Shown here: positions 5,156 to 16,137 of the stretch, one piece after another
Layout of the letters: the number at the start of each line of letters is the position of its first letter
Position numbering within the stretch: position 1 is the stretch's first letter
Virus genome (UHGV): UHGV-0362799
Length of the DNA: 16,858 bases
DNA from: a virus
Direction: 5' to 3' (one strand)
Notes under the pieces: model-generated
Databases searched by the model: none
What the model was told of the DNA's origin: nothing
Seen by the model: only the letters and a program-made list of their open reading frames with translations
Position numbers and translations under genes: made by a program

Positions 5156-5638
5156 ATGCTGAAAATGAACCGTCTGCGCGAAGCCCTCACCGCCTCATCC
5201 CGGTGGTGTCGCGCGAATCCGGAAAAACTCACCGTGTTTGCAGAAAGCGGAAGTATTGAGACCACCGGTGAAACCCCGACGTTTGTCTACCGTTACACGC
5301 TCGTGGCCTTCGTCATGGATTTTCCGGGACACATCGACGAACTGATGCTGCCGCTGATTGTCTGGCTCATGCACAACCAGCCGGATTTGCTGCTCAACCC
5401 GGAAAAAAACAGGGACGTTAAGTTTTCCGTTGCCGTCAATGACGACGACAGCACCGACCTGTTACTGGAAATTCCCGTGCGTGAACGCGTGAAAGTCTGC
5501 CGCAATGAACGGGGTGAACTGTATCCGGTGCACCTGCCGGAACCCCGCCCGCCTGCCGCACTGACGGGCACATGGGGGGATCTGATTGTTGAGGATGTGA
5601 CCTTTAAGGATTTGACCGATGAACACGACATCTCATGA
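5156..5638 (+). CDS. R: Tail completion protein (gpR family)
   Basis: 160-aa ORF with RBS AAGGAGAAG; N-terminus MLKMNRLREALT... resembles gpR; position after the lysis genes as in P2. Confidence 0.75.
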   Translation: MLKMNRLREALTASSRWCRANPEKLTVFAESGSIETTGETPTFVYRYTLVAFVMDFPGHIDELMLPLIVWLMHNQPDLLLNPEKNRDVKFSVAVNDDDSTDLLLEIPVRERVKVCRNERGELYPVHLPEPRPPAALTGTWGDLIVEDVTFKDLTDEHDIS

Positions 5639-6257
5639 ACCGGATGCGGTTTTTCGCGACATTCTGGACGGGCTTTCCGCCGCCGGACGGGCGCGCACGG
5701 CGCGGGCTGTCGGGCAGGCGCTGCGTCAGAGCCAGCAGGCACGTATCCGCGCACAGAAGAACGCAGACGGCTCGCCGTATCCGGCACGAAAACGGCAGGT
5801 GATGCACACCCGCCGTGAAGTGAAGTTTGTGTGGAACGGCGAGGTCCGCACGCTGCGCCAGTGGGGACACAAGCGTTACCGGAGAGGCCGCGCCATCATC
5901 GGGCGCGACCCTGACCGTGGCGGCGCGCTGAGGACGTTTTACCGTGATGATATTGAGCGATACATCGCTGTATCGTCCATGTCTGCCCGTCAGACCAGCA
6001 AAAAAAGCACGCCGATGTTCGCGCGTCTTCGCACATACCGCTGGTTAAAAATGCGCTCAGATGCGGAAGGCGCTGTTGTGGGCTTCGATGGCCTGGCGGC
6101 ACGGATTGCCCGCGTGCATCAGGCAGGGTTACGCGACGAGGTGGCTCCGGGCGTGATGACCACCTACCCGGTGCGTGAACTGCTGGGTATAACCGCAGCC
6201 GACGAACGCCTGGTATATGACACGATTATCCGCTCCCTGAGGAGTGCGGCACGATGA
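5619..6257 (+). CDS. S: Tail completion / virion morphogenesis protein (gpS family)
   Basis: ATG at 5619 with AAGGA RBS 8 nt upstream, overlapping the R 3' end; 212 aa (longer than P2 gpS at about 150 aa); position R-S-V. Confidence 0.7.
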   Translation: MNTTSHEPDAVFRDILDGLSAAGRARTARAVGQALRQSQQARIRAQKNADGSPYPARKRQVMHTRREVKFVWNGEVRTLRQWGHKRYRRGRAIIGRDPDRGGALRTFYRDDIERYIAVSSMSARQTSKKSTPMFARLRTYRWLKMRSDAEGAVVGFDGLAARIARVHQAGLRDEVAPGVMTTYPVRELLGITAADERLVYDTIIRSLRSAAR

Positions 6258-6835: not shown

Positions 6836-7197
6836 GTGCACGTTTTCTGGGGATGAACCCCGAAGCCCCCGGCGCGCTCAGCGATACGGACCATCTGTGG
6901 AACAGCGTGAGGGATATTCTGCTGACACCGCTCGCCAGCCGGGTGATGCGCCGGGAATACGGCAGCCTGCTGCCGGATTTGCTGGATGCACCGATGAATG
7001 CCACCACCCGCCTTCAGTGCATGAGTGCCGTGGTGATTGCCCTGACGCAGTGGGAGCCGCGCATCGCCCTGAATGCCGTTGATATTCAGTGGGAGGCGGG
7101 CGGAAAAGCCGTTATCACTCTCACCGGCACGCTGACAGAAAGCCTGGAAACCGTACAGAACACACTGACACTCAGGAGCGACAATGCCAGCCGTTGA
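6832..7197 (+). CDS. W: Baseplate wedge protein (gpW / gp25-like)
   Basis: GTG start at 6832 overlapping the V stop (GTGA), RBS AGGAGG 7 nt upstream; product begins (M)SARFLGMNPE..., similar to the P2 gpW N-terminus MTARYLGMN; 121 aa. Confidence 0.85.
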   Translation: MSARFLGMNPEAPGALSDTDHLWNSVRDILLTPLASRVMRREYGSLLPDLLDAPMNATTRLQCMSAVVIALTQWEPRIALNAVDIQWEAGGKAVITLTGTLTESLETVQNTLTLRSDNASR

Positions 7198-8080
7198 CCT
7201 GTCGGAACTGCCGACACCACAGATTATTGAAACGCCGGATTTTGAAGTCATCCTGGCGGAGGTAAAAGAAGACATCATTACGTCATTTCCACAGACACAG
7301 CAGGCTGCCATCCGGTCAGCCATGGCGCTCGAGTCCGAACCGCTCACGGTCATTGCCCAGACTTTTGCGCTGCGTGAGTTGCTGCTTCGCCAGCGAATTA
7401 ATGAAGGGGCAGCGGCCTGTATGCTGAGCCATTCCACGGGTGACGACCTGGATAACCTCGCCGCCAACATGAACACCGCGCGGCTGGTCATCACTCCGGC
7501 CACGGATACCACGGAGGCCGTCATGGAAAGCGACACAGCCCTGCGGCTGCGTGCACAGTCTGCGTTTGATGGCCTCAGCGTGGCCGGCCCCACCGGGGCG
7601 TATGAATATTTTGCCCGCAGTGCCAGCGGTCAGGTGGCGGACGCGCGCGCAACCAGCCCCGCACCGGCGGAAGTCGTGGTGGCGGTGCTGTCCACAGAAG
7701 GCGACGGCACGGCGACCGAAGCACTCCTGACGATGGTCAGAAATGCGCTGAATGCCGAAGACGTTCGCCCGGTCGGTGACCGCCTGACGGTGCAGAGTGC
7801 AGAAATCATCCGGTATCAGATTGATGCCCGGCTTTACTTTTATCCGGGGCCGGAGTCGGAACCCATCCTGAATGCCGCCAGAAACAATCTGGAAACCTGG
7901 CTTGCCGAACAGGGCAAAATCGGTCGCGATGTGGCGCTCTCCGCCATCATGGCCGCGCTGCATGTTCAGGGCGTTCAGCGCGTGGAACTGACCAGCCCCG
8001 CACAGAATATTGTTATCAGTGATGTGCAGTCAGCGTACTGCACATCGTTCACGGTCAGCGCAGGGGGAACCAATGAGTGA
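7184..8080 (+). CDS. J: Baseplate assembly protein (gpJ family)
   Basis: 298-aa ORF, RBS AGGAG; size and position match P2 gpJ (about 302 aa). Confidence 0.9.
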   Translation: MPAVDLSELPTPQIIETPDFEVILAEVKEDIITSFPQTQQAAIRSAMALESEPLTVIAQTFALRELLLRQRINEGAAACMLSHSTGDDLDNLAANMNTARLVITPATDTTEAVMESDTALRLRAQSAFDGLSVAGPTGAYEYFARSASGQVADARATSPAPAEVVVAVLSTEGDGTATEALLTMVRNALNAEDVRPVGDRLTVQSAEIIRYQIDARLYFYPGPESEPILNAARNNLETWLAEQGKIGRDVALSAIMAALHVQGVQRVELTSPAQNIVISDVQSAYCTSFTVSAGGTNE

Positions 8081-8612
8081 ACCGTCACTGCTCCCCCCTT
8101 CAGCCAGCGATTTCATGCGCTGCGTGGAGCGGGGGGCTACCCGGTTGTCAGCACTACCTGTCAGCCTTAATCAGCTCTGGGATCCTGACACCTGCCCGGT
8201 GGCCCTGCTGCCTTATCTGGCGTGGGCGCTGTCCGTGGACAGGTGGGATCGTGACTGGACGGAAGAAACAAAGCGCCAGGTGATCCGTGATGCCTGGGCT
8301 ATCCACCGCCATAAGGGAACCATCAGCGCCATCAGGCGTGTGGTTGAACCCTTTGGCTATGTCATTAACGTGACGGAATGGTGGGAAACCGGCGATCCGC
8401 GAGGGACTTTCCGGCTGGACATCGGTGTACTGGATACCGGTATCTCCGCTGCGACCTATACCGAGCTGGAGCGCCTCATCGATGATGCCCGCCCGGTGAG
8501 TCGCCATCTTACCGGATTAAATATTGTGCAGGACATTTACGGGGATGTGTACGTCGGCGGGGCTGTATTTTGCGGCGACACTATTGAGGTTTATCCGGGA
8601 GAGGTTGTCTGA
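8073..8612 (+). CDS. I: Baseplate/tail protein I (gpI family)
   Basis: Internal ATG at 8073 (MSEPSLLPP...) overlapping the J 3' end by 8 nt; about 179 aa, matching gpI size and position. Confidence 0.85.
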   Translation: MSEPSLLPPSASDFMRCVERGATRLSALPVSLNQLWDPDTCPVALLPYLAWALSVDRWDRDWTEETKRQVIRDAWAIHRHKGTISAIRRVVEPFGYVINVTEWWETGDPRGTFRLDIGVLDTGISAATYTELERLIDDARPVSRHLTGLNIVQDIYGDVYVGGAVFCGDTIEVYPGEVV

Positions 8613-8614
8613 AT

Positions 8615-11461
8615 ATGAAATATGGTGCCATTATCACAGCGGCTGGCGCTGCCAGGCTGGCTGCGGCCACAACAGCAACAGGCCAGAAGCTGAACATCAC
8701 TCACATGGCCGTGGGAGATGGTAATGGAAATCTCCCGGAACCATCGGCCTCACAGGCCGCCCTGATCAATGAAGTCTGGCGCGGGACGCTGAATAAAATT
8801 ACACAGAACAGCAAAGCGCCAAATCAGGTGATTGCGGAACTGGTTATTCCTCCGGAAGTTGGCGGCTTCTGGATGCGGGAGCTGGGGTTGTATGACGACA
8901 GCGGAACCCTGATTGCCGTCGCCAATATGGCAGAAAGCTACAAGCCGTTACTCGCCGAAGGTTCGGGGCGCTCAATGGTCTGCCGCATGTTCATCATCAT
9001 CAGCGATATGAACGCGGTGAATCTGTCAGTGGACAGCAGCGTCATTGCCGCAACACAGGAATATGTTAACGAAGCCATCTCCGGCCTGCACCGCGCCATC
9101 ATTGATGATGTGGTTCTTCAGCATAAAGTTGTCCACGATATTGACTACGCCGGTATTTTTGACGGCGCGGATAAGATGAGTCAGGGGTTCTGTATCTGTG
9201 ATACGCCGCAGGGAACCAGAATGTTTCTGCATCAGCCTGTATCGGGTGGCGTAAGGATTGTTGAAACGACATTTAACCCTGACGGAGAAAACGAAAACCC
9301 GACGGTCATTTCGTTTTCTCCCGTTTTCGCTGATATTGGTCACCAGAGTATCGGGGCTGTATGTGAAGACGGTCGCGTGATGCTGTATACCCCGACCGCT
9401 GACGGCAAGGGTGTGAATATCATCAACTGGAATGGGGCTGACACCAGTCTGACAGATGTCACCCGTACGGAGATTTTCACCTCTGACTTTTTTACCGGGG
9501 ATGAAATTATAACGGTGGCATTGTCGGCAGACGGAAGCCTGTTGATTGTTCAGTCAAGTAATGAAGCCGTCCATCTTCATTACAACAGGGATGACCGCCG
9601 CACAGTTTATGTTTTCGATCGCGCTTCTCTGACGTTTAAACACCGGATTTATCTGTCCACCCAGTCAATGGTGTCGCAGGCATTTCAGGGGATGGCCAGC
9701 GATGGTCATTATCTGTTTGCTTATTACGGTTATACAGGCGTATTTCTGACTCACCGCATTGTTGTATATAACCTGTCAACGGGCGAAGTTGTCAGACAGT
9801 TCAATGTGGATGGCGTTCGTGCCAGGTATGGCCGCCAGAAAATGCTGGGGAATGCAGAGCTGGGGTATCCCGTTTTGCAGGAAGCCGAAGGGCTGGCTCT
9901 CCATAACGGAAAACTGTATCTGCTCGATATGGATTTCTGGTGTCAGACAGCCGATGTGGTTTCTTTTGAGGGGGCATACTTTGCAGCACGTGCAACAAAT
10001 TTTTCTGGCCGTTCCCCGGTGAATCCATCTTACTGGACGCCTACAGCATATGGAACGGCGGCTGCAACGAAATATGATGCCACGAAGTCTTATACGTGTG
10101 GCGTGGCGACAAAACGCAGCAAAGCTGTGGTTTCCGTGGAGGCTTACGACGGCACAGGCTATCTGGTGGACTCCGGCGTGGCGTTTCCTGACAGCCATGC
10201 CAGCCTTTTTCTGAGTCCCAATGCTGTAAATATTGCCCTGTCACCCAATGAAGACTTCCAGGTGGCAGCCTATGAGCAGAATCTGCGCTCGCATCGCCCG
10301 TTATTTGAGGTCAGAAAGGAGGCTCCGGATACAGACACTTCTGCTGCTGTTTTTCGTTTGTTCGGGGATGCGTTCCGAACCGGAGAATACACAGGCCGCT
10401 ACGTTCAGTGGAAACACCGACTGAACGCCGTGCACGATTGTCTGGAAATACGCGCTGACGTGGATTTGTTGAGCGGTGGCGGGATTAACCTTTACTCAAT
10501 GAACGATACTCAGTCGGCGGGACGCACAAGGCTTTATTGCACCGATGGCAGTGAAACCTGGTCTGTATTATTGAGTCCGGTCTCGCCGTCATTTCATCCC
10601 GACCAGGACAAGGCAATGAATCTGGGGTCATCGCCAAATCGCTGGAATGTGGCATACCTGCAGGGCGTGAATATTAAATCGGATGACGAAACCCAGAAGC
10701 GCATGACCATCAGCACCACGCTGAAGGCGGGAGCTTTCCAGGTATCAACAGTCGGGAATCTGGGTATTTATGACGATTCTGCTGACGCTTATGTAATTGC
10801 AGCCCGTAGTGACGGCACTGCATTCATGCAGATGGATACAGATATTAACGGTGCATTCCGGCCATCGGTTAACAATACCAGCGACCTGGGTGCGCCCAAC
10901 AAAGCGTTCCGGAGCGTGTATCTCTGCAACTCGCCGACCGTTGTGTCGGATGCGACGTTAAAGGATACACCGCGCGATGCGACGGCAGCCGAAAACGCGG
11001 CATTTGCAGAAATAGCACGGCTTCCGGGCGTGTGGCGCTGGTTACAGAGAATTGAGGAGGAGGGCGAGGACGCGCGTCTGCACGCCGGGCCGACAGTCCA
11101 GGCCGCGATAGCCGTGATGGAGAAACACGGTCTGGACTGGCGGAAATACAGCGCATTTTGTCTGGATTCGTGGGAAGCGGAGGAGGCACAGTACGAAGAT
11201 ATACCGGAAGAGTATGAAGATATTCCGGTTCAGCCAGCGATTTATTCGGATGAAGGGGAGCTGTTGAGCGGGACAACCCGTGTGCTTACCCGACAGGCGG
11301 AAAGGGTTCTTGTTCGCCCTGCAACCGAAGCAGGAAGCCGTTATCGCTTCCGGAAAGAGGAGCTTCTCTGGTGGTGTCTGCGTGCTGTTGTCAGCCAGGT
11401 GGATGCGCTGACAGAGAGTATCAGCGCACTTACCCGCCGTGTTGATTTACTGGAGGAATAA
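8615..11461 (+). CDS. H: Tail fiber protein (gpH family N-terminus; divergent central region; C-terminal intramolecular-chaperone-like domain)
   Basis: 948 aa. N-terminal about 160 aa carries the conserved gpH block ...MAVGDG...ELVIPPEVGGFWMRELGLYDDSGTLIAVANMAESYKP. The rest diverges from P2 H. The C-terminal about 170 aa begins SDATLKD and ends in a predicted helix, resembling peptidase S74-type self-cleaving chaperone domains. Confidence 0.9.
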   Translation: MKYGAIITAAGAARLAAATTATGQKLNITHMAVGDGNGNLPEPSASQAALINEVWRGTLNKITQNSKAPNQVIAELVIPPEVGGFWMRELGLYDDSGTLIAVANMAESYKPLLAEGSGRSMVCRMFIIISDMNAVNLSVDSSVIAATQEYVNEAISGLHRAIIDDVVLQHKVVHDIDYAGIFDGADKMSQGFCICDTPQGTRMFLHQPVSGGVRIVETTFNPDGENENPTVISFSPVFADIGHQSIGAVCEDGRVMLYTPTADGKGVNIINWNGADTSLTDVTRTEIFTSDFFTGDEIITVALSADGSLLIVQSSNEAVHLHYNRDDRRTVYVFDRASLTFKHRIYLSTQSMVSQAFQGMASDGHYLFAYYGYTGVFLTHRIVVYNLSTGEVVRQFNVDGVRARYGRQKMLGNAELGYPVLQEAEGLALHNGKLYLLDMDFWCQTADVVSFEGAYFAARATNFSGRSPVNPSYWTPTAYGTAAATKYDATKSYTCGVATKRSKAVVSVEAYDGTGYLVDSGVAFPDSHASLFLSPNAVNIALSPNEDFQVAAYEQNLRSHRPLFEVRKEAPDTDTSAAVFRLFGDAFRTGEYTGRYVQWKHRLNAVHDCLEIRADVDLLSGGGINLYSMNDTQSAGRTRLYCTDGSETWSVLLSPVSPSFHPDQDKAMNLGSSPNRWNVAYLQGVNIKSDDETQKRMTISTTLKAGAFQVSTVGNLGIYDDSADAYVIAARSDGTAFMQMDTDINGAFRPSVNNTSDLGAPNKAFRSVYLCNSPTVVSDATLKDTPRDATAAENAAFAEIARLPGVWRWLQRIEEEGEDARLHAGPTVQAAIAVMEKHGLDWRKYSAFCLDSWEAEEAQYEDIPEEYEDIPVQPAIYSDEGELLSGTTRVLTRQAERVLVRPATEAGSRYRFRKEELLWWCLRAVVSQVDALTESISALTRRVDLLEE

Positions 11462-11463
11462 TT

Positions 11464-11748
11464 ATGGACTTAACACCGGTGTTCCATGCACTTTGTGCGG
11501 TGGCCGCTCAGTTTCTGGTTGGTCTTTTTACCGGAAACTGGGCTTACGGAGCGATAGCCGGTTGTACGTTCTTCATTGCGCGTGAACACACCCAGGCAGA
11601 ATATCGCTGGATTGAAATGTTCGGGCATGGCAGGCGTATGAATATGCCGTGGTGGGGCGGTTTTGACCCACGAGCGTGGGATATGGCAAGTCTGATGGAT
11701 TTTGCAGTGCCGGTGGTGGCATGTCTGCTGGTCTGGCTGGTCGTATGA
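11464..11748 (+). CDS. Small hypothetical membrane protein, translationally coupled to the tail fiber gene
   Basis: ATG 3 nt after the H stop with excellent RBS GGAGGA 6 nt upstream; 94 aa with two hydrophobic segments (residues about 6-39 and 77-94) flanking a Trp/Arg-rich loop; followed directly by a terminator. No family recognised. Confidence 0.6.
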   Translation: MDLTPVFHALCAVAAQFLVGLFTGNWAYGAIAGCTFFIAREHTQAEYRWIEMFGHGRRMNMPWWGGFDPRAWDMASLMDFAVPVVACLLVWLVV

Positions 11749-11760
11749 CGTAGCAGGAAA

Positions 11761-11785
11761 CAGGGGGATTTGCCCCTGTTTTTTT
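11761..11785 (+). terminator. Rho-independent terminator ending the fiber operon
   Basis: CAGGGG-GATTTG-CCCCTG hairpin followed by TTTTTTT, 13 nt after the stop of the 94-aa gene. Confidence 0.7.
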
Positions 11786-11786
11786 G

Positions 11787-11930
11787 TTCAGAATGCAGCC
11801 TTCACCATTCGTCTCTAATCGTATTCAGTAATTCGCCCGCAGAAACAAACTAAAATTCATCCCCCGCATCACGCCACTGAAAGCAGACGGTAAACTCCAG
11901 ATTTTCAAACCAGCGTCAGAAGTATTTAAA
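11787..11930 (-). pseudogene. Degenerate remnant of a gpU 3' end (frameshifted fragment)
   Basis: About 70-80% nucleotide identity by eye to 12569-12705, the 3' end of the intact U gene. Reverse translation gives ...SAGELLNTIRD then a 1-nt deletion relative to U (...SAGELLNALKDKMPVAAF*). No start codon and no upstream part of the gene. Confidence 0.55.
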
Positions 11931-12151
11931 TGGCACCAGATGTAATATGCAGGCGATTAATATGGTGTGCTTAAAGATCATAAAAGCGGGCAACATTAAA
12001 ACTCCGGGCTGTGTAAATTACCGCCACTCATAATCAGAGATGAAAACAGAATTAAACTGGCGGAGTGGATTGTATACATAAAATAAGTTCAGTTGTTGAC
12101 TTTCACTTCCGTGAATTGATGAAGGTTATTACAATACATCGGTATGATCTC

Positions 12152-12176
12152 TCCTCCTTAAAAGGGAGGACTTTTT
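12152..12176 (+). terminator. Candidate intrinsic terminator
   Basis: TCCTCCT-TAAAA-GGGAGGA hairpin followed by CTTTTT. Confidence 0.45.
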
Positions 12177-12193
12177 AGAACGCAGAAATTATT

Positions 12194-12256
12194 TATAATC
12201 CCGTAGTGTTCTATACATGCAAACATTCTTTTTCCGCCCCGTGCGGGCTTTTTTTT
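12194..12256 (+). ncRNA. Candidate small transcription unit S1 (-10 TATAATCCC to short GC hairpin plus T8)
   Basis: TATAAT at 12194-12199 with AT-rich upstream region; GC stem 12236-12248 followed by T8 (12249-12256); predicted transcript about 50 nt; no convincing ORF or RBS. Confidence 0.25.
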
Positions 12257-12324
12257 GCCGCAAAGATACAGTAACAAACAAAATTGTAATCATGGCAATC
12301 AAAACACGAGAAACATTTTCAGCA

Positions 12325-12353
12325 ATTGCAATAACAAATTAAAATATTGCAAT
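12325..12353. promoter_or_regulatory. Two perfect ATTGCAAT palindromes spaced 21 bp centre to centre (operator-like); a third, imperfect, ATTGTAAT lies at 12283-12290
   Basis: ATTGCAAT at 12325-12332 and 12346-12353; the second overlaps the -35 of the S2 promoter; ATTGTAAT is centred 42 bp upstream of the first. Confidence 0.35.
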
Positions 12354-12376
12354 TGACAATCCCCGCTTAATATAAT
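12347..12376 (+). promoter_or_regulatory. Candidate sigma70 promoter (TTGCAA-N18-TATAAT)
   Basis: TTGCAA 12347-12352 and TATAAT 12371-12376; an alternative -35 TTGACA at 12353-12358 gives only a 12-bp spacer. Confidence 0.4.
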
Positions 12377-12382
12377 CCCTTC

Positions 12383-12444
12383 CGGAACATAGAACATTAA
12401 ATCTTCACACAATGCATGTTGCCCTCTTTATGAGGGCTTTTTTT
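12383..12444 (+). ncRNA. Candidate small RNA S2 (promoter to terminator, about 60 nt)
   Basis: Predicted start about 7 nt after the -10; ends at the GCCCTC-TTTAT-GAGGGC plus T7 terminator (12421-12444); only a 30-aa ORF without RBS runs through the terminator. Confidence 0.3.
12421..12444 (+). terminator. Rho-independent terminator
   Basis: GCCCTC / GAGGGC stem with 5-nt loop followed by TTTTTTT. Confidence 0.65.
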
Positions 12445-12537
12445 ATTTCCAGAATATCACCATTGCCATCATCGGGCGATTTATATATAGTCAGAATGTA
12501 TTGACAACATTTTGCTTCTTTTCCATGAAGGCCATAA

Positions 12538-12567
12538 GGGAGTGCTTTTTACACTCCCTCTTTTTTT
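12538..12567 (+). terminator. Rho-independent terminator (+ strand) abutting the U stop codon
   Basis: GGGAGTG-CTTTTTA-CACTCCC followed by TCTTTTTTT. In the - orientation the hairpin is followed only by UUAU, so it acts mainly on + strand transcription heading into U antisense. Confidence 0.65.
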
Positions 12568-12569
12568 AT

Positions 12570-13028
12570 TCAGAATGCAGCCACAGGCATTTTGTCTTTA
12601 AGCGCGTTCAGCAGTTCGCCCGCAGAAGCAGACTGAAACCGCTCTCTCATATCCTCATCACACCGCTGAAAGCTGATGGAAAACTCAATCTTTTTTGCCT
12701 TTCCGTAACGATCCAGCTCGGAGCGGGTGGTCTGTAATCCTGTAATCACGTACATTCCGTAAATCTGCCCCGTGCCATCAATCAGCGGCCAGGGACATCC
12801 GGTGTAGGCCTGGGTGTTCAGCAGTGTCAGTGACACCTCACCACCGGTAATTTCCGGGTACAACAGACCGGACAGCGTGATCTGATCGTCACCTGCGCCA
12901 ATATACTGCCAGGCCGCAGAGCGGTTAATGCGCTCATTTTTCACATGTCGCCATGTTTTGCTCTGCTGGATCTGCTGATGCGGAAGCGTTTTCAGCTCAA
13001 ACACAAACATGCCAAAAATCATCATCAT
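12570..13028 (-). CDS. U: Tail protein U (gpU family)
   Basis: 152 aa, starts MMMIFGMFVFELKTLPHQQIQQSKTWRHV...LSGLLYPEITGG, recalled as the gpU family signature; RBS AGGAGA upstream; directly downstream of the tape measure gene. Confidence 0.85.
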   Translation of the reverse strand: MMMIFGMFVFELKTLPHQQIQQSKTWRHVKNERINRSAAWQYIGAGDDQITLSGLLYPEITGGEVSLTLLNTQAYTGCPWPLIDGTGQIYGMYVITGLQTTRSELDRYGKAKKIEFSISFQRCDEDMRERFQSASAGELLNALKDKMPVAAF

Positions 13029-13041
13029 AATTGCGTCTCCT

Positions 13042-16000
13042 TTAGTCCCTGTCGCGGAAGCTGTTCATGCCTGTACGCGCCTGTCTGCGCATCTCTTCGC
13101 GGACGGCCTCACCAACCAGTTTTGCCAGTTCGCGCGGATTCTGTGTGTTGACGTTGTGCAGATGTACATGTATCTCACCGGAAAACGCAGCCGCCTGCGG
13201 CTGTGGCGCAGCTTCCCTTCTGGCCGCATCCGGTCGCAACGGGGGCCGGATAGCCTCCGCGACGGGAGCGGAAGCCATTACCGCCCCCGTCATACCTTCA
13301 GCCACGTTACGCGGCTGCGGCAGTGCGGAGACCTGGCGGGCCACGTTCACAACGGGAGCGGGGGCACTCACCGCAGGGGTGGGCAGTACACCTGTCAGTC
13401 TCTGCCAGAGCATTGTCAGTGCATCCGTCAGCCCTACGCCCGCCGATACCGCCTGCACCGTCCGGACAACCTGCGGTGCTTTCCACTCGCCGTGAATGAT
13501 TTCGGATCCGGGCAGATTTTTGAAAACAATATCGCCGGGACCGACGCGCCTGCGTGTTTCCTCAAGAAGCCCGCCGGTGTTGCTGGCGGTTTTCTGTATC
13601 CCCTGCCGGAACCATGCCTCATCCAGCGGGGATTTGCTGCCGGGTTTGCCGACCGGATTGTCCGCCGTTCCCCTCACCTCTCCGGGAACAGCAGGGGCAG
13701 GTACTGCGGGTTTATTGTCACCGTTGTTTTCCGCTGCATCTGATGACCACGACCATGGTTTCTGCACCATTTTTTTCTGTGCAGGATCCCACTCCCACGC
13801 AACCGGCGCTTTTTGTGTGGCCTGTTTTGCGGCGCTCTCCTGGAGTTTTTGCGTCTCCTTCTGTGCCTCTTTGATGCCGTCCGGGATGACACCCAGCCAC
13901 TTCAGCACGGTACCGAGGCCATCAAGGAGCAGCGTCAGCGGCCCCAGCACAATGTTCTGAATGACCCACCCCAGCGTTTTCCCGAACGACTCCCCTGCAC
14001 TGGTGCATTTGTCGAGCGTCTCTTTTGAGGCGTTCGCAGGTTCAAGCAGGCGGGTGAACCACTCCCACACGGCTTTGATGCCGTCGCCAATCAGCCCGAA
14101 CACCGGAGCCAGCGATGCAAAGGCTTGCCGCAGCGGTTGCAGCGCCTCCCACACTCCGGCAAAAAAGCCGGAAAAAAACGCGCTGATCTGATCCCAGTAT
14201 TTCCACACCAGAACCGCGCCGCCCACCAGGGCGGCAACAATCAGCCCGACCGGACTGAACAGCGCCCCCAGTGCGCCCCCCAGTACCGACACCGCCCCCG
14301 TGACCAGCCCCCACAGCGCAGGCAGCCCCGTCAGGCGCAGTGCCATCGCAGACACAAGCCGGACAGCACCACCAATGCCACCGCCCCCCGTCAGCAGCCC
14401 CAGTCCCAGTTGCAGTTTTGCCAGTGGCCCCGCAATCAGCCCGAGCGTCAGTGACAGCGCACCGAACGTGGAAGACAGCGCCAGAACACTACCGCCGGTC
14501 AGCACCAGCCCCCTGACCAGCGCCTGGTGCTCTCCGACCCATTCGCGCATCCGGGTCATCCACGCGCTCACCGTCTGAACCAGCCCGCGCAAATCCTCCG
14601 TCACTGTACCGAAGATGTCCGTGCGTAGCCCTGAGAACGCACCACTCAGCGCCTGAACATCGCCGGAAAGATTACCGCGCAGTGTCTGCCCCATGCGGTC
14701 TGCCACGCCGCTGACATCACCCAGGTTGTCACGGACATCAGCCAGCGCCCTCAGGAACTGCGGGATCTGGTCAACGGAAAGGTCTTCAACGGGTGTGCCG
14801 AACAGCGCAATGGCCGTGTTCGCCCGCTCTGCCGGGTCACGGATGGCCAGCAGTGCACGGGCGGTCACCTGCATCGCCTGACGAGCAGTGCTGCCTCCCT
14901 GTGCAATGGCAGCAGACACCCGCTCAGCATTCAGGCCGAGAGTCTCATACGCTGAGACACTGGATTTCGACATATCCGAACCCCGGATGCTGAACTCCTT
15001 CACGGCATCGCCGGTTTTGTCCAGCGCAAACTTGCCCTGCTTTGCCATCTCAACCAGCAGACTCATTGTCTCGCTGCCGGTGAAGCCCATGTTGCGGAAG
15101 TGGGTGGAATACTCGTGCAGAATTTCCGGCAGTTCATCGCGCATTTCAGCGGACATACGCTGCATCCCTGCCGTCATCAGGTTAGTAGCCTCGTCACTGC
15201 TGGCAGCCAGCCCGTTCTTCATCATGATGGCAGCGGCCTGAATGCTCTGCGGCACATCAACACCAAAGACGGTCCGCATATCCAGCGCACGACGGCTGAT
15301 GCGCTCCAGTTCCCGGTCGCCGGTGTCGCCCAGTGCGCCGAGCGTACTGCGTACCGCACTCACAGCCTCCGCAGCACCGGCAAAATCAGCGAGACCGTCA
15401 GCCTGTATGTTACGAATAATGTGGGTGTAACGTGCGCCATCCTGTGCGCCTTCCCCCGAACCGGCTGCGATGACCGCACCGTGCTGTTCGGACTCCATCG
15501 CCGGAGCCATCATACGCTGCGCCGCATACAGGCCGCCTGTACCCGCCGCCATCGCCACAGCCCCTGTGTTGCGCAGTTTTTCCGCCTGTGCCTTCGCGGC
15601 CTCATAGCGGCTCTGTGCCTGCGTCACGCGAGCCAGTGCCTGCCGTTCGCGCTCGAGCTGCTCGTTGTACTGCTGTGTACGGCGAACGGCACTTTCAATG
15701 GTGCGGCTGCTGCCGGAAAGCAGAATGCCGTGTTTGCGCATTTCCCCTGCCGCCGCCTGAAGTTTTTCGCGCTCACGCGTGCGCAGCTCGTTCAGGCGCT
15801 CAAGCCGTGCAGACAGCGCCGTCATCATCTCCCGCTGCTTTTCAGAGAGGGTGTTGCCGTTCTGCTCTGCCTTTCGCAGTCCGGCGAGCCTCTGCTCCGC
15901 GCGGGCAATCTGTTCGCGGTATTTACTGAGATTTCCGGCGGCACGTTCGAACACCTTCGACTGCCTGTCGAGCGTCTGTATGTTGTCCTGCGTCTTCTGA

Positions 16001-16137
16001 AGGGATTCAGTGAGAGCGCCCACCTGACGGCGGGCGTTTTCGGTCGGGCGTGTCAGCCGGTCAATTGCGCCAAAGCTGACACGAATATCAAGGGATTTCA
16101 CTGTTGCGGACTCCGCTGCGTTGCGCCGCCCGCTCAC
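13042..16137 (-). CDS. T: Tail tape measure protein (gpT family)
   Basis: 1031-aa ORF, GTG start; coiled-coil-rich N-terminus, Gly/Ala-rich hydrophobic central block and Pro/Ala-rich C-terminus, typical of tape measure proteins; position E/E'-T-U. Confidence 0.9.
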   Translation of the reverse strand: MSGRRNAAESATVKSLDIRVSFGAIDRLTRPTENARRQVGALTESLQKTQDNIQTLDRQSKVFERAAGNLSKYREQIARAEQRLAGLRKAEQNGNTLSEKQREMMTALSARLERLNELRTREREKLQAAAGEMRKHGILLSGSSRTIESAVRRTQQYNEQLERERQALARVTQAQSRYEAAKAQAEKLRNTGAVAMAAGTGGLYAAQRMMAPAMESEQHGAVIAAGSGEGAQDGARYTHIIRNIQADGLADFAGAAEAVSAVRSTLGALGDTGDRELERISRRALDMRTVFGVDVPQSIQAAAIMMKNGLAASSDEATNLMTAGMQRMSAEMRDELPEILHEYSTHFRNMGFTGSETMSLLVEMAKQGKFALDKTGDAVKEFSIRGSDMSKSSVSAYETLGLNAERVSAAIAQGGSTARQAMQVTARALLAIRDPAERANTAIALFGTPVEDLSVDQIPQFLRALADVRDNLGDVSGVADRMGQTLRGNLSGDVQALSGAFSGLRTDIFGTVTEDLRGLVQTVSAWMTRMREWVGEHQALVRGLVLTGGSVLALSSTFGALSLTLGLIAGPLAKLQLGLGLLTGGGGIGGAVRLVSAMALRLTGLPALWGLVTGAVSVLGGALGALFSPVGLIVAALVGGAVLVWKYWDQISAFFSGFFAGVWEALQPLRQAFASLAPVFGLIGDGIKAVWEWFTRLLEPANASKETLDKCTSAGESFGKTLGWVIQNIVLGPLTLLLDGLGTVLKWLGVIPDGIKEAQKETQKLQESAAKQATQKAPVAWEWDPAQKKMVQKPWSWSSDAAENNGDNKPAVPAPAVPGEVRGTADNPVGKPGSKSPLDEAWFRQGIQKTASNTGGLLEETRRRVGPGDIVFKNLPGSEIIHGEWKAPQVVRTVQAVSAGVGLTDALTMLWQRLTGVLPTPAVSAPAPVVNVARQVSALPQPRNVAEGMTGAVMASAPVAEAIRPPLRPDAARREAAPQPQAAAFSGEIHVHLHNVNTQNPRELAKLVGEAVREEMRRQARTGMNSFRDRD

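Follow-up and report, generated by a model that had tools for sequence, protein, structure and literature searches.

Gene relics at the joints of mosaic temperate-phage genomes are explained, in models of the Hendrix type, by non-homologous or relaxed-homology recombination. A different route to a partial gene copy is taken by integrating elements such as phage 21 and e14 at icd and the islands at tRNA and tmRNA genes, which target the 3' end of a gene and carry a replacement end with them; duplication of a gene 3' end is the pattern that occurs at icd and at tRNA-gene integration sites. Recombination of the non-homologous or relaxed-homology kind has been quantified in temperate phage genomes, and temperate phages and prophages commonly exchange DNA across short or diverged homologies (PMC3945230). 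In P2-like phages no part is exchanged more than the tail-fibre genes, and a comparison of P88 and pro147 covers the H and tfa cassettes (PMC5285337). According to the older work cited in PMC3945230 (Haggard-Ljungquist 1992; Sandmeier 1994), H and G/tfa cassettes are exchanged among P2, Mu, P1 and lambda-type phages.

The locus described here lies in the UHGV virus genome UHGV-0362799, of which we analysed a stretch of 16,858 nucleotides (the window). The window is a P2-like E. coli prophage with the P88/Xuanwuvirus layout: capsid, lysis and baseplate genes are followed on the plus strand by J, I, H and orf94, the tail operon FI-FII-E-T-U is inverted (minus strand), and the plus-strand fibre genes H and tfa converge on its U-side 3' end. 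Near-identical prophages in E. coli chromosomes (L001, L002) likewise have FI-FII-E-T-U flipped compared with P2, with D and ogr next to it on the plus strand. The prophage family carrying this region was found in about 70 (72) of 5426 complete E. coli genomes, ST131 strains among these.

The tail fibre or spike gene H (8615-11461, plus strand, 948 aa) matches phrog_19921 over its full length and has two Pfam domains, Phage_tail_fib (aa 2-148) and Peptidase_S74 (aa 778-840). Its first ~150 codons (to ~9066) are the conserved P2-type collar domain, and the incoming cassette discussed below begins at ~9067. In the prophage of strain 2-1 (L001, 16373-18300, 99% identical) a frame-shifted element of the IS3 family splits H. 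Downstream of H lies orf94 (11464-11748, plus strand), which encodes a small predicted membrane protein of 94 aa with a match to phrog_1443 (E 9e-56) and none in the Pfam search. The protein is 91-94% identical across many lambdoid phages and prophages, and the gene travels together with the fibre cassette. Members of phrog_1443 are present in ~1900 E. coli records, mostly at the fibre-region end of lambdoid prophages (loci L053-L131). There orf94 is followed by what we take, from the sequence, to be the stranded end of a tfa gene of the lambda type (3' end, ...EAWKKYRVLL); it looks as if the orf94 cassette displaces tfa in phages of unrelated types as well.

The H-orf94 unit ends in an intrinsic terminator (terminator 1; 11755-11786, plus strand) predicted by pattern scan and RNA folding, with a hairpin, a T7 run and a fold of -17.4 kcal/mol (z -4.6). 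On the other side of the gap stands the functional tail gene U (GpU, 152 aa; 12570-13028, minus strand), whose match to PF06995 is full-length (E 7e-40; 135.8 bits against a Pfam gathering cutoff of 27.5) and which is directly downstream of T, the tape-measure gene of the inverted operon (13042-16137, minus strand; PF10145 and the annotation of L001 and L002). The gap between orf94 and U measures 820 nt and is AT-rich (35-40% GC). A scan of the window for hairpins with T-runs returned 8 sites against 1.9 expected, and five of these are plus-strand sites within the gap (predicted terminators).

A first-pass annotation had described, within this gap, a degenerate duplicate of the gpU 3' end in the same orientation, with roughly 70-80% identity, and had proposed a pairwise alignment as a check. 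The alignment bears this out. Comparison of 11740-11960 with 12500-13030 by blastn gave a single significant same-strand alignment with indels, 11774-11905 against 12556-12694, in which the distal and the proximal copy are identical at 101 of 139 positions (73%) with 7 gap positions (1 nt and 6 nt; E 7e-19). The alignment spans the terminator T-run and, on the minus strand, the final ~43 codons of gpU. The Smith-Waterman score of 79 is far outside the distribution from 500 dinucleotide shuffles (mean 16.0, sd 2.2, max 26), and a repeat scan of the window recovered the same duplication as three collinear blocks (27 nt at 93%, 48 nt at 79% and 42 nt at 79%) with a spacing of 782-789. Additionally, the 22-mer TTTTTTTRTTCAGAATGCAGCC (T7-R-TTCAGAATGCAGCC) occurs exactly twice in the window against 0 expected. 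A plus-strand hairpin with a T7 run stands ahead of both copies, at 11763-11777 and 12537-12559, as had been noticed at first pass. The proximal copy is the last 43 codons (12570-12698) of the real U gene; being contiguous with the U body, which has the full-length PF06995 match (E 7e-40) and a dN/dS far below 1, it is the native, functional one. Similarity between the copies is uneven: there is one near-identical stretch (21/22 nt), sited at the stop-codon end, and the rest is ~70% identical. The longest exact run is 14 nt, and the order at the stop edge is T7, one variable base and these 14 nt.

The search for further copies gave little. The first-pass annotation had read a third trace at 12445-12475 as a sign of repeated events at one site. 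At best this trace shares nothing more than an 8-mer with the distal copy, which 689 of 2000 shuffles equal, and where it has CAGAAT, sister lineages have CCGAAT or CCGAAC; neither the trace nor the repeated events find support. Candidate traces of the U end behind terminators 2 and 3 do no better than chance (1229 and 768 of 2000 shuffles equal them), and TCAGAACGCAG after terminator 2, considered as another such trace, was rejected, as it is the 3' end of tfa. The segment 12488-12522 has a weak similarity to the U end (single-test p ~0.009) that is not convincing; it resembles the stop-proximal part of U (TCAGAATG...CATTTTG..TCTTT) and has a weak hairpin and a T/A-rich run ahead of it. It could be a far older and shorter scar, or chance.

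The distal copy is a truncated and disrupted relic of the gpU 3' end, ~41 codons and the stop, at 11787-11911 on the minus strand (73% identity to 12570-12694). Homology within the extent first assigned to it (11787-11930) is real; the right limit was set too far, since similarity to U stops at ~11905-11911 and the 3' end of an H gene takes over from ~11912. On the minus strand the relic reads NLEFTVCFQWRDAGDEF, an in-frame stop, FVSAGELLNTIRDE, a frameshift and then MVKAAF with the final stop, and it aligns with the end of the real U, ...KIEFSISFQRCDEDMRERFQSASAGELLNALKDKMPVAAF and stop. The 1-nt deletion previously noted in the distal copy is indeed present as a frameshift, but the list of lesions was incomplete: there are also the in-frame stop and a deletion of 6 nt (two codons). 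A strong predicted terminator separates orf94 from the relic, and the hairpins that flank the relic are ordinary predicted terminators of convergent transcription units. A tblastn search of 50,697 phage records with the reconstructed 39-aa relic peptide, a query too short for this purpose, gave chance matches only.

The ~640 bp between the two copies consist of the end of an old H (~50 nt), a decayed tfa and then ~390 nt of non-coding DNA; the older H 3' end and the gutted tfa account for the first ~270 nt past the relic. The last ~17 codons and the stop of the older H are at 11912-11961 (plus strand), as identified by alignment of the junction with P2, P88 and L051 and by tblastn with the P2 H C-terminus. 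Searched sensitively against phage genomes, window positions 11916-12002 match the P2 junction of H end and G start, and also that of SfMu, in plus orientation (80.7% over 88 nt, E 4e-12); in the H/tfa junction alignment with P2, P88 and L051 the stop of the old H falls at 11959-11961 and the start of tfa at 11963. The P2 G-like tfa (11963-12187, plus strand, by tblastn) has lost its middle: ~24 N-terminal codons remain at 11963-12033 and a C-terminal piece at 12033-12187, the former matched by P2 G aa 1-14 (11962-12003), the latter by aa 138-164 of the intact tfa of L051 (12033-12113, E 8e-7). A hairpin inside the decayed tfa (12150-12170) looks like chance. A terminator downstream of the tfa stop (12233-12258, plus strand) is present in all lineages, relic-free ones included. 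It is followed by a variable AT-rich spacer (12259-12389, 73-86% identical between lineages) with a conserved TATAAT at 12371-12376.

Throughout 11912-12569 we found no ORF of at least 42 aa, no family-matched ORF and no integrase, and tblastn gave the H and tfa relics only. Small ORFs of the gap on both strands were considered as genes and rejected, being interrupted or frame-shifted between lineages. One of the small ORFs, on the minus strand at 12189-12302 (...ALITILFVTVSLWQKK...), is hydrophobic, spans terminator 3 and has counterparts in L002 (20759-20986) and L005 (6145-6321); in the window an in-frame stop lies upstream of it, and where it ends varies between lineages with the length of the T-run. 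It is probably not a gene, though it resembles short membrane peptides. Compared with the prophage of strain E08 (L002), the window is near-identical from orf94 through the tfa remains, then ~74% identical over ~190 nt (12209-12400), then similar again; this divergence is a second, younger mosaic boundary within the gap.

Relatives of the window are of two kinds. The sister prophages of TUM9803 (L004), SCU-172 (L005), AR_0085 (L132) and SWHEFF_58 (L133) have another fibre gene, an orf94 protein ~80% identical to that of the window and a different hairpin. Their U relic nevertheless meets the H-end relic at the very junction seen in the window, and the joint is shared by the window, L004-type and L005 lineages. 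There are two relic types only, both tied to one orf94 family. The neighbouring tfa is preserved to different degrees: in L005 it is a near full-length, frame-shifted pseudogene (5530-6125, E 3e-56), in L004 (5920-6153), L132 and L133 the C-terminal half is left, and in the window only the N- and C-terminal ends. This graded decay is a series descending from one ancestral joint. Two IMG/VR contigs, L134 (1-1500) and L135, are prophage remnants that keep the hairpin, relic, gap and U; their deletion begins within the gene for the large terminase, ends at the orf94 stop codon and fuses the 3' part of the terminase gene (minus strand) to the hairpin.

Relatives of the second kind are free of the relic. 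In the prophage of E. coli strain 135 (L051), J-I-H (H of 1079 aa) is followed by an intact tfa (187 aa) and, after 380 nt of non-coding DNA, by U, with neither orf94 nor a U relic. Homology between the window and L051 covers 7128-9066 (to H codon ~150) and resumes at 12033; in between, the relic alone matches, and what it matches is the real U of L051. The viral contig L136 is relic-free like L051, with an intact H-tfa and the same non-coding DNA beside U, and it lacks orf94. Since L051 and L136 have the inter-copy DNA and no distal copy, that DNA is resident. What can be separated from the locus is the block on the left, made up of the C-terminal part of H, orf94, the hairpin and, at its right edge, the 125-nt U fragment. 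In 43 related U loci of other genera, where H-tfa (or an invertase) converges on U with a short gap, no second U fragment was found. From terminator 5 through the proximal copy into the U body, all lineages are collinear and 92-95% identical, with no interruption at codon ~110. The C-terminus of U (12570-12600 in the window) differs between groups: it is ...KDKMPVAAF in the E. coli lineage (152 aa) and ...SGLF or similar in most other-genus relatives (158-162 aa). The extreme 3' end of U was possibly remodelled by the event that set terminator 5 against U.

Comparison of the relics between lineages indicates how they evolve. Differences between relic and resident U fall at the three codon positions as 13:8:8 in the window, 9:8:7 in L004 and 10:7:10 in L005 (~40 codons each), and this even spread, small as the sample is, points to neutral decay with no coding constraint. 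Relic divergence is of the same order as the synonymous divergence of the linked orf94: 0.12 against a pS of 0.15 for L004 and L005, 0.30 against 0.46 for the window and L004. The real U is strongly constrained among the lineages (dN 0.006-0.022, dS 0.21-0.37; nucleotide identity 92-95%). On these sequence comparisons we conclude that the relic is a presumably non-functional, decaying pseudogene fragment. Its length is ~125-140 nt in all three lineages, and the neighbouring tfa has lost hundreds of bases; the constant length could be due to chance or to weak selection. When window-type and L004-type relics were tested for sisterhood, the relic versions and the real U came out about equidistant (~70% pairwise, ~112-120 sites). 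At the stop end the window relic and the resident U have in common the short ...AAF terminus, the T7 run and 4 nt of the hairpin stem (CCCT), with 25/29 nt identical. The relics of L004 and L005 end in ...SSSLNAFP, have a different hairpin and lack the T7 run; thus at least one further exchange took place left of, or inside, the relic. Sliding identity between L004 and L005 across the relic reveals a local variable patch only (L004, 5776-5814).

We hold, with a probability of roughly 0.75, that the relic is the leftover of an old tail-fibre module replacement and lies at its non-homologous joint. The acquired block would have consisted of a new C-terminal part of H, orf94 and the hairpin, with the left crossover in the H collar domain near 9066. 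At its source the block would have adjoined a U gene, and the adjacent U 3' end would have been dragged along. At the right end, an illegitimate joint would connect the source U, ~125 nt inside the gene, to the old H, ~50 nt short of its stop. The displaced tfa, its partner gene gone, would since have decayed by deletions, and the U fragment by point changes and indels. Since the new fibre has a Peptidase_S74 intramolecular chaperone, and the incoming cassette brought this fibre and orf94 in place of a tfa, the old tfa would have become dispensable or redundant and decayed in place. We infer this order of events, and a donor that was another phage of the same layout.

One difficulty for such an import is that no donor-type phage, in which orf94 and its hairpin are followed directly by an intact U, was found among 5426 E. 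coli genomes, 50,697 phage records, 80 viral contigs with orf94 and 43 loci. The missing donor also speaks for an origin in situ, by unequal crossover between two genomes of the same phage, for instance in a concatemer, joining U (125 nt before its stop) to the 3' end of H. The product would be a tandem duplication of H end, tfa, non-coding DNA, terminator 5 and U 3' end. The relic would then descend from the resident U, and the cassette of H C-terminal part and orf94 would later have overwritten the left-hand tfa and non-coding DNA, up to the terminator. The atypical short C-terminus common to the window relic and the resident U (MVKAAF and MPVAAF), together with the T7 run and CCCT, fits such an origin, as does the different tail of the 158-162 aa U proteins of other genera. 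The likeness of the stop ends (25/29 nt) is, however, equally compatible with a close donor, with unequal crossover in situ followed by overwriting, and with later conversion. The in-situ course needs at least two events against one for import, its intermediate with two copies of tfa and non-coding DNA is unseen among the 72 E. coli genomes with the region, and the relics of L004 and L005, with their other C-terminus, other hairpin and no T7 run, imply that the left boundary is not simply terminator 5. We regard an origin in situ as unlikely. It is less likely still, and in our judgement improbable, that the relic is maintained for a function, either as a homology handle for incoming fibre cassettes or as an antisense source or target for the 3' end of the U mRNA. 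Its preserved length in three lineages beside a heavily deleted tfa, and the two versions of cassette, hairpin and U end over one right-hand junction, would suit a function, and the 21/22 nt at the stop end of the window relic against ~70% elsewhere would suit a later crossover or conversion inside it. Against this stand the neutral substitutions, the stops and frameshifts, the restriction to two relic types, each found with the same orf94 family, and the L004-L005 sliding comparison, which has no clean breakpoint. The strong terminator after orf94 makes plus-strand read-through unlikely, and antisense pairing would be poorly served by a match of 73% identity in which no exact run exceeds 14 nt.

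The first-pass annotation had explained the duplication as the scar of an insertion into the 3' end of U that brought a replacement terminus. The recombination scar stands; the insertion does not. A mobile segment (11931-12569) that entered the U 3' end with a replacement terminus, leaving the original behind as the distal copy, would account for a same-orientation 3'-end duplication ~780 bp apart with a degenerate outer copy. But recombinases and family-matched ORFs are absent between the copies, and the H and tfa relics and the non-coding DNA found there are at the same place in relatives that have no distal copy. No att-like core is present at the inner edge of the duplication, where 11900-11911 and 12689-12700 share AAACTC only. 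The empty site that an island should leave in other genomes was absent from E. coli genomes, U loci of other genera and viral contigs with orf94; the converse arrangement, the segment with no distal copy, is what L051 and L136 have. Moreover, the stretch from terminator 5 to the U body lacks the break at codon ~110 that a replaced terminus would entail. L051 and L136 contradict the insertion, to which we attach next to no probability; the relic at 11787-11911 was not left by an element that integrated into U. Import of a fibre module accounts for the same scar as an ordinary product of phage recombination, and no new mechanism is revealed.

The gap contains one further feature, a conserved non-coding block (12390-12569, plus strand) in which terminator 4 (12421-12447) is followed by a promoter-like site at 12463-12491 and then by terminator 5 (12537-12568), immediately beside the U stop codon. 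The block is 93-96% pairwise identical in five lineages, as against 73-86% for 12259-12389 and a synonymous pS of 0.19-0.30 for U. There are two promoter-like sites (12347-12376 and 12463-12491), each followed by ~60-75 nt and a terminator, converging on the U stop. The terminator-5 unit has an RNA fold z-score of -2.9, and its stem has one compensatory change, G:C to C:G, in L004 and L051. Every small ORF in 12390-12569 is broken by indels across lineages; an Rfam 15 scan of the entire window (E <= 1) gave no matches, and an exact 22-mer search of viral contigs did not find the core outside this family (6 matches, all beside U). Conservation is not absolute, as L132 and L133 have several changes in the second promoter-terminator unit. 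The two units, from promoter 12347-12376 to terminator 4 and from promoter 12463-12491 to terminator 5, are possible prophage sRNAs, judging from these predicted signals. That the block encodes one or two sRNAs of no described family and that, at the same time, the relic persists as a handle for fibre-cassette swaps is a combination we consider doubtful.

These observations make the locus a clean and datable case of the replacement of a tail-fibre (host-range) module in P2-like prophages, with a joint that stranded the old assembly gene, now visible at three stages of decay in sister lineages. For annotation, the relic should be called neither a gene nor an att site; it is a marker by which this prophage family can be traced.

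The locus resembles the elements at icd and tRNA genes in its same-orientation partial 3'-end duplication with a degenerate outer copy. Unlike them, it has no integrase, inner core or empty site, and the DNA between the copies is resident, not foreign. The overall arrangement, an inverted FI-FII-E-T-U converging on fibre genes, is that of Escherichia phage P88 (Xuanwuvirus); there, however, an invertible tfa'/Hv' segment and a DNA invertase lie between tfa and U, whereas here the place is taken by relics and ~390 nt of non-coding DNA. In phage Chuche a glycosyltransferase is downstream of U, where the lineage of the window has relics and non-coding DNA. Relics at mosaic joints are a closer parallel: a truncated, disrupted and neutrally decaying fragment of a neighbouring gene stands at the boundary of two ancestries, and relatives have the undisturbed order. 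The locus differs from the usual mosaic joint by the direct 3'-end duplication and the look-alike terminator, and by an old joint common to lineages whose orf94 is 80% identical, with no donor genome identified. As in the known exchanges of H and tfa, the left crossover is at the end of the collar domain (~codon 150), the replaced tfa is P2 G-like, and the new C-terminal part and the accessory gene are common to lambdoid phages. In contrast to those exchanges, a Peptidase_S74 fibre and orf94 have here replaced tfa, and a piece of the unrelated gene U came along.
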